A DNA stretch of 64,000 nucleotides, taken from IMG/VR virus record IMGVR_UViG_3300047550_006186. The stretch is one strand, 5' to 3'. Of this stretch, positions 61,555-62,390 are shown piece after piece. Numbering within the stretch: the first letter of the stretch is position 1; every line of letters begins with the position of its first letter. The notes below the pieces were generated by a model. The model searched no databases and was not told where the DNA came from. It worked only from the letters and a program-made list of their open reading frames with translations. Made by a program: the position numbers and the translations under genes. The stretch comes from a virus.

Positions 61555-62211
61555 GTGAATTGTTTCCAAAAAAACAAAAAAACCATGTACCTATTAAATA
61601 GGTGTATGAAACTCAAAGAATACAATGTGATCGCCAGCTCAGTGCGATTGGACGAGATTCCACCACAATACCGTGAACTGCCTTTGTTGGGGCGTGGAGC
61701 CACCAGTTTGGCATTTGAAAAAAATGCCAACACTGTGATTGTGTTCACAAGAGATCTCATGAAGGTGGAATGGCTTAAGAATGGATTGAGCATGGTGCAC
61801 AATCAACAAATTGTACATCCTGTTCGGTGGCATCATATTCCAGGCATGCAAAAGCATGATCTAGTCATGATTGAAATGCCCAAATTGTATCCATTGGATG
61901 CTGTGAACAAGAGCAGGGTTATCAAGGAAACCAATGCGTTCACTCGACTGATGATCAATCATCGACTGAGTAGATTGCACCAAGGTTCATGGCACACCAA
62001 ATTGAATAAGATTATTGAAGATTTTGTTCAGGTGTACCCACGCAGTCAAATATTGCCATTTTTGGAATGGATACTGGACTACGATCCCAAGGATTTTTTC
62101 CTGGATATTGGGCCCAGACAATTCAAGCAAACTTCCAAGGGCAAGATAGTGCTGTTGGATCCTGTAGTTGCAGCCGATTTGTTGAAGCTGTTACAAACCA
62201 AAGGCAGGTGA
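61555..62211 (+). CDS. Hypothetical protein, possible atypical small kinase-like fold
   Basis: Gly-rich loop LGRGATSLAFE and later VLLDPV; weak. Confidence 0.4.
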   Translation: MNCFQKNKKTMYLLNRCMKLKEYNVIASSVRLDEIPPQYRELPLLGRGATSLAFEKNANTVIVFTRDLMKVEWLKNGLSMVHNQQIVHPVRWHHIPGMQKHDLVMIEMPKLYPLDAVNKSRVIKETNAFTRLMINHRLSRLHQGSWHTKLNKIIEDFVQVYPRSQILPFLEWILDYDPKDFFLDIGPRQFKQTSKGKIVLLDPVVAADLLKLLQTKGR

Positions 62212-62268
62212 ACTACTGTTGGTCTAAACACCAACAGCTGGCTGCTTGATCGTAGTGGTTGACATCTC
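62206..62268. repeat. IS element A right-end-like remnant (GTGAACTAC family variant)
   Basis: ggtgaactactgttggtctaaacaccaacagctggctgcttgatcgtagtggttgacatctc. Confidence 0.5.
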
Positions 62269-62327
62269 TCTGCTGGAAGGCATGATCGGCAATGTGGAAC
62301 GCTTGAGCATTGGCAGGTCAGCTGCCT
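62228..62327 (+). pseudogene. Diverged remnant of MVP C-terminal tail (last 18 codons) lacking a start
   Basis: ...LEGMIGNVERLSIGRSAA* versus mvp end LEGMLNNMEKFSIGKLPA*; followed by homologous terminator. Confidence 0.5.
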
Positions 62328-62351
62328 AAACACAGCAAAATTCCAGTGTTT

Positions 62352-62390
62352 ACTAACCGTGGAATTGAAAAATTCCACGGTCTTTTTTGG
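62352..62390 (+). terminator. Rho-independent terminator
   Basis: accgtggaatt-gaaaa-aattccacggt then cttttttgg. Confidence 0.6.

Follow-up and report, generated by a model that had tools for sequence, protein, structure and literature searches.

The segment at 62206–62390 of a 64,000-nt stretch of viral DNA (IMG/VR record IMGVR_UViG_3300047550_006186; hereafter, the window) is best read, with a probability of roughly 0.6, as a non-functional, non-coding junction scar between two related phage genomes, which would have been joined non-homologously inside an insertion sequence (IS) on one side and 19 codons before the stop of another major vault protein gene (mvp) on the other. The segment consists of three pieces, namely, the truncated right end (RE) of a TnpB-only IS200/IS605-family element, the last codons of a second mvp allele (tail2), and the 3′ untranslated region (UTR) and terminator (term2) of that allele (Table 1). 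The window belongs to a large T4-like tailed phage, which encodes rIIA, rIIB, a DNA polymerase, and a sigma factor and carries tRNA genes; an Rfam scan of the window returned tRNAs only, and a megablast search of the window against GenBank phages gave no match.

Table 1. Coordinates of the junction segment, its neighbors, and the IS copies in the window (+ and -, strand).
Feature	Coordinates	Strand	Evidence or remarks
Partial IS copy	15808-15990		
Internally deleted IS copy	25004-25597		
Smaller IS scraps or stubs	30340-30382, 41295-41349, 41571-41618		
Full IS copy	39712-41001	-	Self-BLAST
Full IS copy	50167-51456	-	Self-BLAST
HNH endonuclease gene, mvp neighbor	55220-56032	-	
Homospermidine-synthase/saccharopine-dehydrogenase-like gene, mvp neighbor	56094-57500		
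PP-loop (TilS-like) gene, mvp neighbor	57716-58420		
mvp, functional major vault protein gene	58997-61492	+	831 aa from ATG at 58997
Module copy 1: mvp coding tail (LEGMLNNMEKFSIGKLPA and stop), 3′ UTR, terminator hairpin 61519-61549	61435-61556	+	Direct repeat D2, inverted repeat I10
Gene X, 201-aa conserved phage protein of no known function	61606-62211	+	56 homologues, E to 1e-131
IS right-end remnant (61 nt), TnpB-only IS200/IS605 family	62208-62268	-	Matches IS copies at 15842, 25037, 39745, 50199
Tail2, last 18 codons and stop of a second mvp allele (LEGMIGNVERLSIGRSAA and stop)	62269-62329	+	blastn E 1e-8; MVP C-terminus profile E 6e-5
Relic 3′ UTR and canonical intrinsic terminator, term2 (predicted)	62330-62391	+	Terminator scan, RNA fold, module alignment 85/126
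Gene Z module: conserved leader CAATATTG...ACACACAGACACACAAGGAG and 80-aa ORF at 62484-62726	62440-62726	+	98.4% identical to L020 (DNA)
Gene Y 5′ part, L020 type	62786-63006	+	95.9% identical to L020 vs 89% to L005, L006, L024
Full-type IS copy (left end and tnpB from 63084), runs off the window	63007-64000	+	Pfam OrfB_IS605, HTH_OrfB_IS605; 91-92% identical to copies 39712-41001 and 50167-51456

The homology of tail2 to the 3′ end of mvp is confirmed by alignment well beyond chance, which bears out the proposal of the initial annotation that the segment holds a diverged second copy of the MVP 3′ tail and its terminator. In a blastn search within the window, positions 62272–62342 matched 61435–61506 at 55 of 72 nucleotides (76%; E = 1e-8), the best non-self match, and the similarity extends through the stop codon into the 3′ UTR and then, past small indels, into the terminator. 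When the two tails and terminators were aligned as whole modules (coding tail, 3′ UTR, and terminator; 61435–61556 against 62272–62391), 85 of 126 columns agreed (z = 10.5), and none of 2,000 shuffles did as well. At the protein level, the ORF at 62228–62326 fits the conserved MVP C-terminal motif (…GTPLEGM.xN…LS…) and was matched at E = 6e-5, from LEGM to its end, by a profile of 38 MVP C-termini from which window-type tails had been left out; among 2,801 six-frame peptides, it came second to mvp itself, with the next non-mvp match at 0.4. The peptide LEGMIGNVERLSIGRSAA, encoded together with its stop at 62273–62329 in a frame open from 62228, is identical to the MVP C-terminus at 10 of 18 residues (12 had been counted initially), or similar at 15 of 18 with conservative changes, and it groups with the closest MVP subclade, the tails of which read ...E.LSIG[RK]..A. 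Fortuitous resemblance of an unrelated intergenic stretch to an mvp tail would agree with the non-significant result of tblastn with the single 18-aa tail2 sequence (E = 0.52) but is refuted by the blastn and profile scores, the z value of the module, and the equal spacing from stop to terminator, which reduce its probability almost to nil.

Several features mark tail2 as a relic rather than a gene. It begins 781 nt past the mvp stop (somewhat farther than the roughly 740 bp given initially) and is not part of a continuous ORF with vault repeat or shoulder domains, the sequence upstream of it being IS and not mvp. Because tail2 has no start codon or ribosome-binding site and is preceded by an in-frame stop (62225–62227), it is not expected to be translated. 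Further MVP similarity upstream of tail2, for which the initial annotation had suggested a search, was not detected: tblastn found no such similarity in the window outside 58997–61492 apart from tail2, and none upstream of 62269. The two tails differ by 24%, whereas the adjoining IS and gene X lie only 0–5% from their relatives, which indicates that tail2 came from a diverged genome and not from a recent local duplication; a local tandem duplication was rejected on this ground.

The terminators of the two modules begin 26–27 nt past their respective stop codons and have the core GTGGAA...TTCCAC in common, as the initial annotation had noticed, so that term2 is homologous to the mvp terminator (term1) in both position and core. 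Term1 has a 15-bp stem (61519–61549; RNA fold of −27.1 kcal/mol, z = −4.3) without a clear T-run. Term2, the more canonical of the two, has an 11-bp stem at 62356–62381 with 5 GC pairs and a 4-nt loop, followed by CTTTTTTGG (−20.2 kcal/mol, z = −3.2), and follows the pattern of an intrinsic (Rho-independent) terminator, with a G+C-containing stem-loop and a T-run. It would probably end transcripts leaving gene X, ahead of the leader of gene Z, and is the only part of the segment that may still act. A sigma-70-like sequence (TTGACA-16-CATGAT, 10/12; 62259–62286) spans the joint between the IS and tail2 and is aimed into the relic terminator; it is probably fortuitous.

The palindrome adjoining gene X, initially described as resembling an IS right end, is confirmed as a genuine one by comparison with other copies of the element. 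The stub contains the terminus GTAGTTCAC, a subterminal hairpin (62216–62237), and the 3′ end of tnpB. In an alignment of the IS copies (A3), all of which begin at GTGAACTA(C/T) on the plus strand, the stub starts exactly at the right-end terminus of the element (GTGAACTAC, plus strand), and beyond ATCTC, at 62268, the window no longer follows the consensus of the family. L026, which comes from an independent JGI sample, has the same RE variant abutting gene X at the same nucleotide, but there the sequence continues into the IS body; the window copy is therefore a truncated stub. The stub equals the L026 right end for 47 nt, and its last 12 nt resemble a different IS subtype than these first 47 nt. 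The same joint of gene X and the right end is present in contigs from two more samples (L023 and L025), both of which end in the hairpin, and an identical RE 30-mer heads truncated or miniature copies in viral contigs L027 and L028. The stop codon of gene X (TGA, 62209–62211) falls inside the IS end and, from this position, is IS-derived.

Self-BLAST of the window delineated an IS repeat family of approximately 1.29 kb, and the copies observed carry tnpB only. The TnpB ORFs at 39727–40920 and 50182–51375 match OrfB_IS605 (approximately 1e-20), Cas12f1-like_TNB (approximately 1e-21), and HTH_OrfB_IS605 (1e-15). In four copies, the left end is preceded by TTAT or TTAC, i.e., insertion occurs 3′ of TTAY; the target is not duplicated, terminal inverted repeats are lacking, and each end has a subterminal hairpin. 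L020 shows the site in gene Y without an insertion, which reads …AATTTAC on one side of the insertion point and TAATAAA on the other. The TTAY flank, the lack of target duplication, the hairpins, and TnpB together conform to the IS200/IS605 pattern, and the domain content of TnpB and the many deletion derivatives are likewise those of TnpB-only (IS1341-like) members of that family. Unlike full elements of this kind, the window stub comprises only 61 nt of the right end and has a variant hairpin sequence. Ends of the IS were found exactly in other IMG/VR contigs (L027, L028, and L031–L034), and the family, searched for as TnpB protein and IS-end DNA, was not found in 185,579 bacterial reference genomes. 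IS605-type elements have been reported in prophages (PMC5311958).

Two other places carry traces of the same family. Contigs L005 and L006 end in a main-type IS right end, GGTGAACTACCACGCCCTAAAGGGCTGT, inside gene Y (at 6747–6774 and 5102–5129, respectively), so that this IS family strikes gene Y elsewhere there. A perfect palindrome with a 19-bp stem lies between convergent genes at 35186–35226 of the window; its arm is identical at 30 of 32 positions to the RE variant of 62206–62237, and it may be a bidirectional terminator derived from an IS end. Dispersed promoter/stem-loop cassettes occur in T4-type phages, and shuffling of such a cassette was considered for 62206–62268 and rejected, because self-BLAST and Pfam show the end of a TnpB element.

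Comparison with related contigs places the segment on a seam. The window resembles A-type relatives to the left of the scar and L020, the B type, to its right, and this similarity pattern shows it to be a mosaic of the two types. On the left, positions 57690–62207 (a tilS-like PP-loop gene, orf127, mvp, and gene X) are 94%–100% identical to the L005/L023/L025/L026 group. The flanks of this 4.5-kb block are overall approximately 75%–89% identical and its edges are sharp: leftward of approximately 57690, identity to L005 drops to approximately 75%–80%, and the homospermidine-synthase-like protein encoded there is only 73% identical. From gene Z onward, the window is L020-like; L020, from sample ERR10108619, has an intact gene Y behind gene Z, and its contig starts exactly at the equivalent of 62440. 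In three relatives, L005 and L006 (97% identical in MVP and 99% in gene X) and L024 (86% in gene X), gene X is followed directly by gene Y, with neither IS nor tail2 nor gene Z in between. The L026 scaffold continues beyond an N-gap into unrelated high-GC DNA beside an IS left end, which we did not take as true linkage.

The joint between the IS and tail2 and the stretch 62269–62440 are seen only in the contig of the window; the contigs L023 and L025 stop in the hairpin, and that of L020 begins at 62440. An assembly chimera, with passage from gene X through the repeated IS end into another strain or locus, would fit the multicopy nature of the IS end, the breaks of independent contigs at the hairpin and at 62440, and the likeness of the last 12 nt of the stub to another IS subtype. 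Such an error is nevertheless very improbable: the shared stretch measures just 61 nt, and the 76% similarity of the two tails is far too low to mislead an assembler. Even a chimera would leave tail2 abutting an internal IS fragment somewhere, so that the relic and the truncated IS would stay real.

According to the junction-scar reading, the IS would first have landed at the far end of gene X in the A-type lineage, a state seen in L026. A non-homologous join would then have connected a break 61 nt inside the IS with a break 19 codons before the stop of a B-type mvp, possibly across a 3-nt overlap (CTC) that is compatible with microhomology, although this overlap is itself inferred, the B parent being unsampled. 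The body of the B-type mvp would have been lost, with its tail, its terminator, and genes Z and Y surviving, and nothing in the resulting relic would be expected to be translated. The scheme presumes a right-hand parent that had an intact mvp directly upstream of gene Z, and a join made in one step. The initial annotation had suggested looking for an intact version of the second allele in related phages; we found no intact mvp ending in LEGMIGNVERLSIGRSAA and followed by gene Z among the tails of 120 MVP clusters, among the cluster members, or in IMG/VR, where a degenerate peptide pattern and the term2 sequence served as queries.

An IS-mediated route in two steps would leave the same scar. 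Homologous recombination between non-allelic IS copies of co-infecting genomes would yield the order mvpA-X-IS-...-mvpB-Z-Y, and a subsequent deletion, reaching from within the IS almost to the end of mvpB, would remove what lay between. Three observations would suit this route: the 64 kb of the window hold at least 3 full copies of this abundant, dispersed family as well as several partial ones; its deletion derivatives and stubs are common (25004–25597, 15808–15990, and those of L027 and L028); and the left edge of the scar lies inside an IS. We nevertheless consider it rather unlikely, given that it requires two events with an oversized intermediate genome and that no relative with two mvp copies was seen; its end product is the same as that of the one-step join and indistinguishable from it with these data.

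The mvp of the window encodes a protein with an MVP_shoulder domain (Pfam, E = 3.8e-20) and has thousands of homologues, the closest being P0001 (97%) and P0180, P0182, and P0183 (96.7%). The body of the gene has a GC content of 63% (GC3 of 0.86), against 43%–45% in the rest of the phage DNA, and the mvp allele of L022 likewise reaches 63%; in other relatives, mvp exceeds its own flanks by merely 1–11 points. From this composition, mvp looks recently imported from a high-GC relative. Its last 12 or so codons (tail1) have a low GC content, 43%. Tail2, initially described as of lower GC, has 54%, which is below the mvp body but above tail1.

These compositions bear on the interpretation offered at the outset, according to which the insertion of gene X and/or the high-GC allele split an old resident low-GC mvp or took its place, so that tail2 would be the original tail of the lineage itself. 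The foreign composition of the mvp body and the location of tail2 just beyond the right end of the block common to L005-type phages fit this interpretation, and it partly coincides with the junction-scar reading if the L020-type backbone is called resident. It is improbable all the same, because the direct succession of X and Y in L005 and L006 and also in L024, a more distant relative, makes, by parsimony, the X-Y order the older one, to which tail2 and gene Z were added; because the left edge of the relic is a truncated IS and not gene X; because tail2 is not lower in GC than tail1; and because tail1 is itself an odd low-GC tail compared with near-identical alleles. The idea that tail2 is a relic of another mvp allele, beside an IS end at the right edge of the high-GC mvp/X block, thus survives, whereas "older" and "low-GC" cannot be read from approximately 60 nt, and splitting of mvp by the insertion of gene X disagrees with the order of genes in L005, L006, and L024. 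Gene X was also considered as a mobile insert that brought a replacement tail, a candidate rejected in view of the X-Y adjacency common to the same three relatives.

Tail1 has a history of its own. The MVPs of P0180, P0182, and P0183 are 96.7% identical to that of the window over 818 residues, yet only 5 of the last 13 residues are in common. The low-GC tail1 peptide encoded at 61451–61492 is NNMEKFSIGKLPA, and the tail of the 96.7%-identical alleles is KNIEGLAIGRAA; their tail type, KNIEGL[AS][IL]GRAA, is also found on other high-GC alleles (P0002 and P0077). Such a sharp difference from near-identical alleles makes tail1 look swapped, with a breakpoint at or just past the LEGML codons, and, taken with the occurrence of the other tail type on high-GC P0002 and P0077, suggests that the low-GC tail1 is itself a leftover of a replaced allele. 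The relic in the segment starts within a few nucleotides of the same LEGM-coding patch, a coincidence that a random break leaves unexplained. Conceivably, the patch, approximately 55 nt before the mvp stop, is a recurrent exchange point at which large vault-encoding phages swap cassettes of tail, terminator, and downstream cargo, possibly aided by breaks or homology that phage-borne TnpB elements provide. We hold this to be quite unlikely; if true, the mismatch of tail1 with the 96.7%-identical alleles and the start of the relic at the same patch would be footprints of one process.

The initial annotation had also taken the relic to mean that vault genes have long resided in this lineage. For such long residence in the phage clade, the conserved synteny of tilS and mvp across relatives of 73%–97% MVP identity is better evidence than tail2. 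The adjacency of the two genes is conserved in L014 and L015 (MVP 73%), and L015 and L005 carry the homospermidine synthase gene at some distance upstream. Outside the cluster of the window, the nearest mvp relative with a readable locus is L022 (80%; its relative P0002, 82%), in which a NADAR gene, and not gene Z, lies downstream. Two gut-phage MVPs have already been described (preprint 10.1101/2023.11.10.566534), and the window resembles them in that a tailed phage carries an intact MVP homologue, here beside a relic; relics, tail swaps, and IS-linked rearrangement lie outside the scope of the preprint.

The genes downstream of mvp differ in their mobility and state. Many homologues of gene X are on large contigs (up to 512 kb), and the gene has a weak match to phrog_3809. 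Gene Z has homologues in L017–L019 and L029/L030 in unrelated contexts (e.g., next to tRNA genes or a BI-1-like gene) and not beside mvp, and its conserved leader (62440–62483) travels with it in all five; from these unrelated neighborhoods, the gene and its leader appear to behave like a moron. Gene Y is doubly disabled in the window, by a CAA-to-TAA nonsense codon (62858–62860) and by the IS inserted after TTAC at 63003–63006, and is intact in L020 and L005; the N-terminal part of its product weakly matches phrog_16619, a family of phage minor head proteins (E = 6e-6).

Scars made of gene fragments have been described at the mosaic joints of lambdoid phages and mycobacteriophages, where they arise by illegitimate recombination between related phages. 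The segment shares with such joints the sharp switches of similarity, the non-homologous joint, a short useless remnant near its intact counterpart, and variable cargo downstream of a conserved gene, and differs from them in that one side lies inside an IS and the remnant retains a whole terminator, possibly still active. Elements that enter a gene and supply a replacement end, such as islands integrating in tRNA genes, also leave displaced 3′ gene ends behind. As there, two diverged copies of the 3′ end of a gene flank intervening DNA and the upstream copy is in use. Unlike in such islands, no integrase or att-like identity was found, the copies are just 76% alike, and the adjacency of gene X to gene Y in relatives indicates that the two tails do not delimit an inserted unit containing gene X.

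Scars of gene fragments at mosaic joints, IS-linked rearrangements, and IS605/TnpB elements are all established in phages, and the segment, a clear instance in a vault-encoding phage, is most likely an ordinary scar of phage genome shuffling and not a working element, a kind of feature already known. It leaves the knowledge of vaults, IS605 elements, and phage mosaicism unchanged, and documents, at nucleotide resolution, a reshuffling downstream of a phage vault gene, in which a 4.5-kb block carries along an mvp of foreign composition and has, as its right edge, an IS stub fused to the tail of a displaced allele. For annotation, the segment is not to be called a gene and the stop of gene X is to be noted as IS-derived; as a marker, the segment can also help to trace how these uncultured phages recombine.

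Some minor sequence features of the window are worth recording. The motif TAAATAG-N4-ATGAAA stands just before the start codons of gene X (61595–61612), gene Y (62775–62792), and tnpB (63073–63090); it recalls the late-promoter box of T4-type phages, TATAAATA, but is unusually close to the ATG. Other repeats, unrelated to the segment, are an inverted pair of approximately 440 bp (31201–31644 versus 48641–50028; 96%–98% identity) and a 69-bp direct repeat (12809–12877 versus 13297–13365; 88%).
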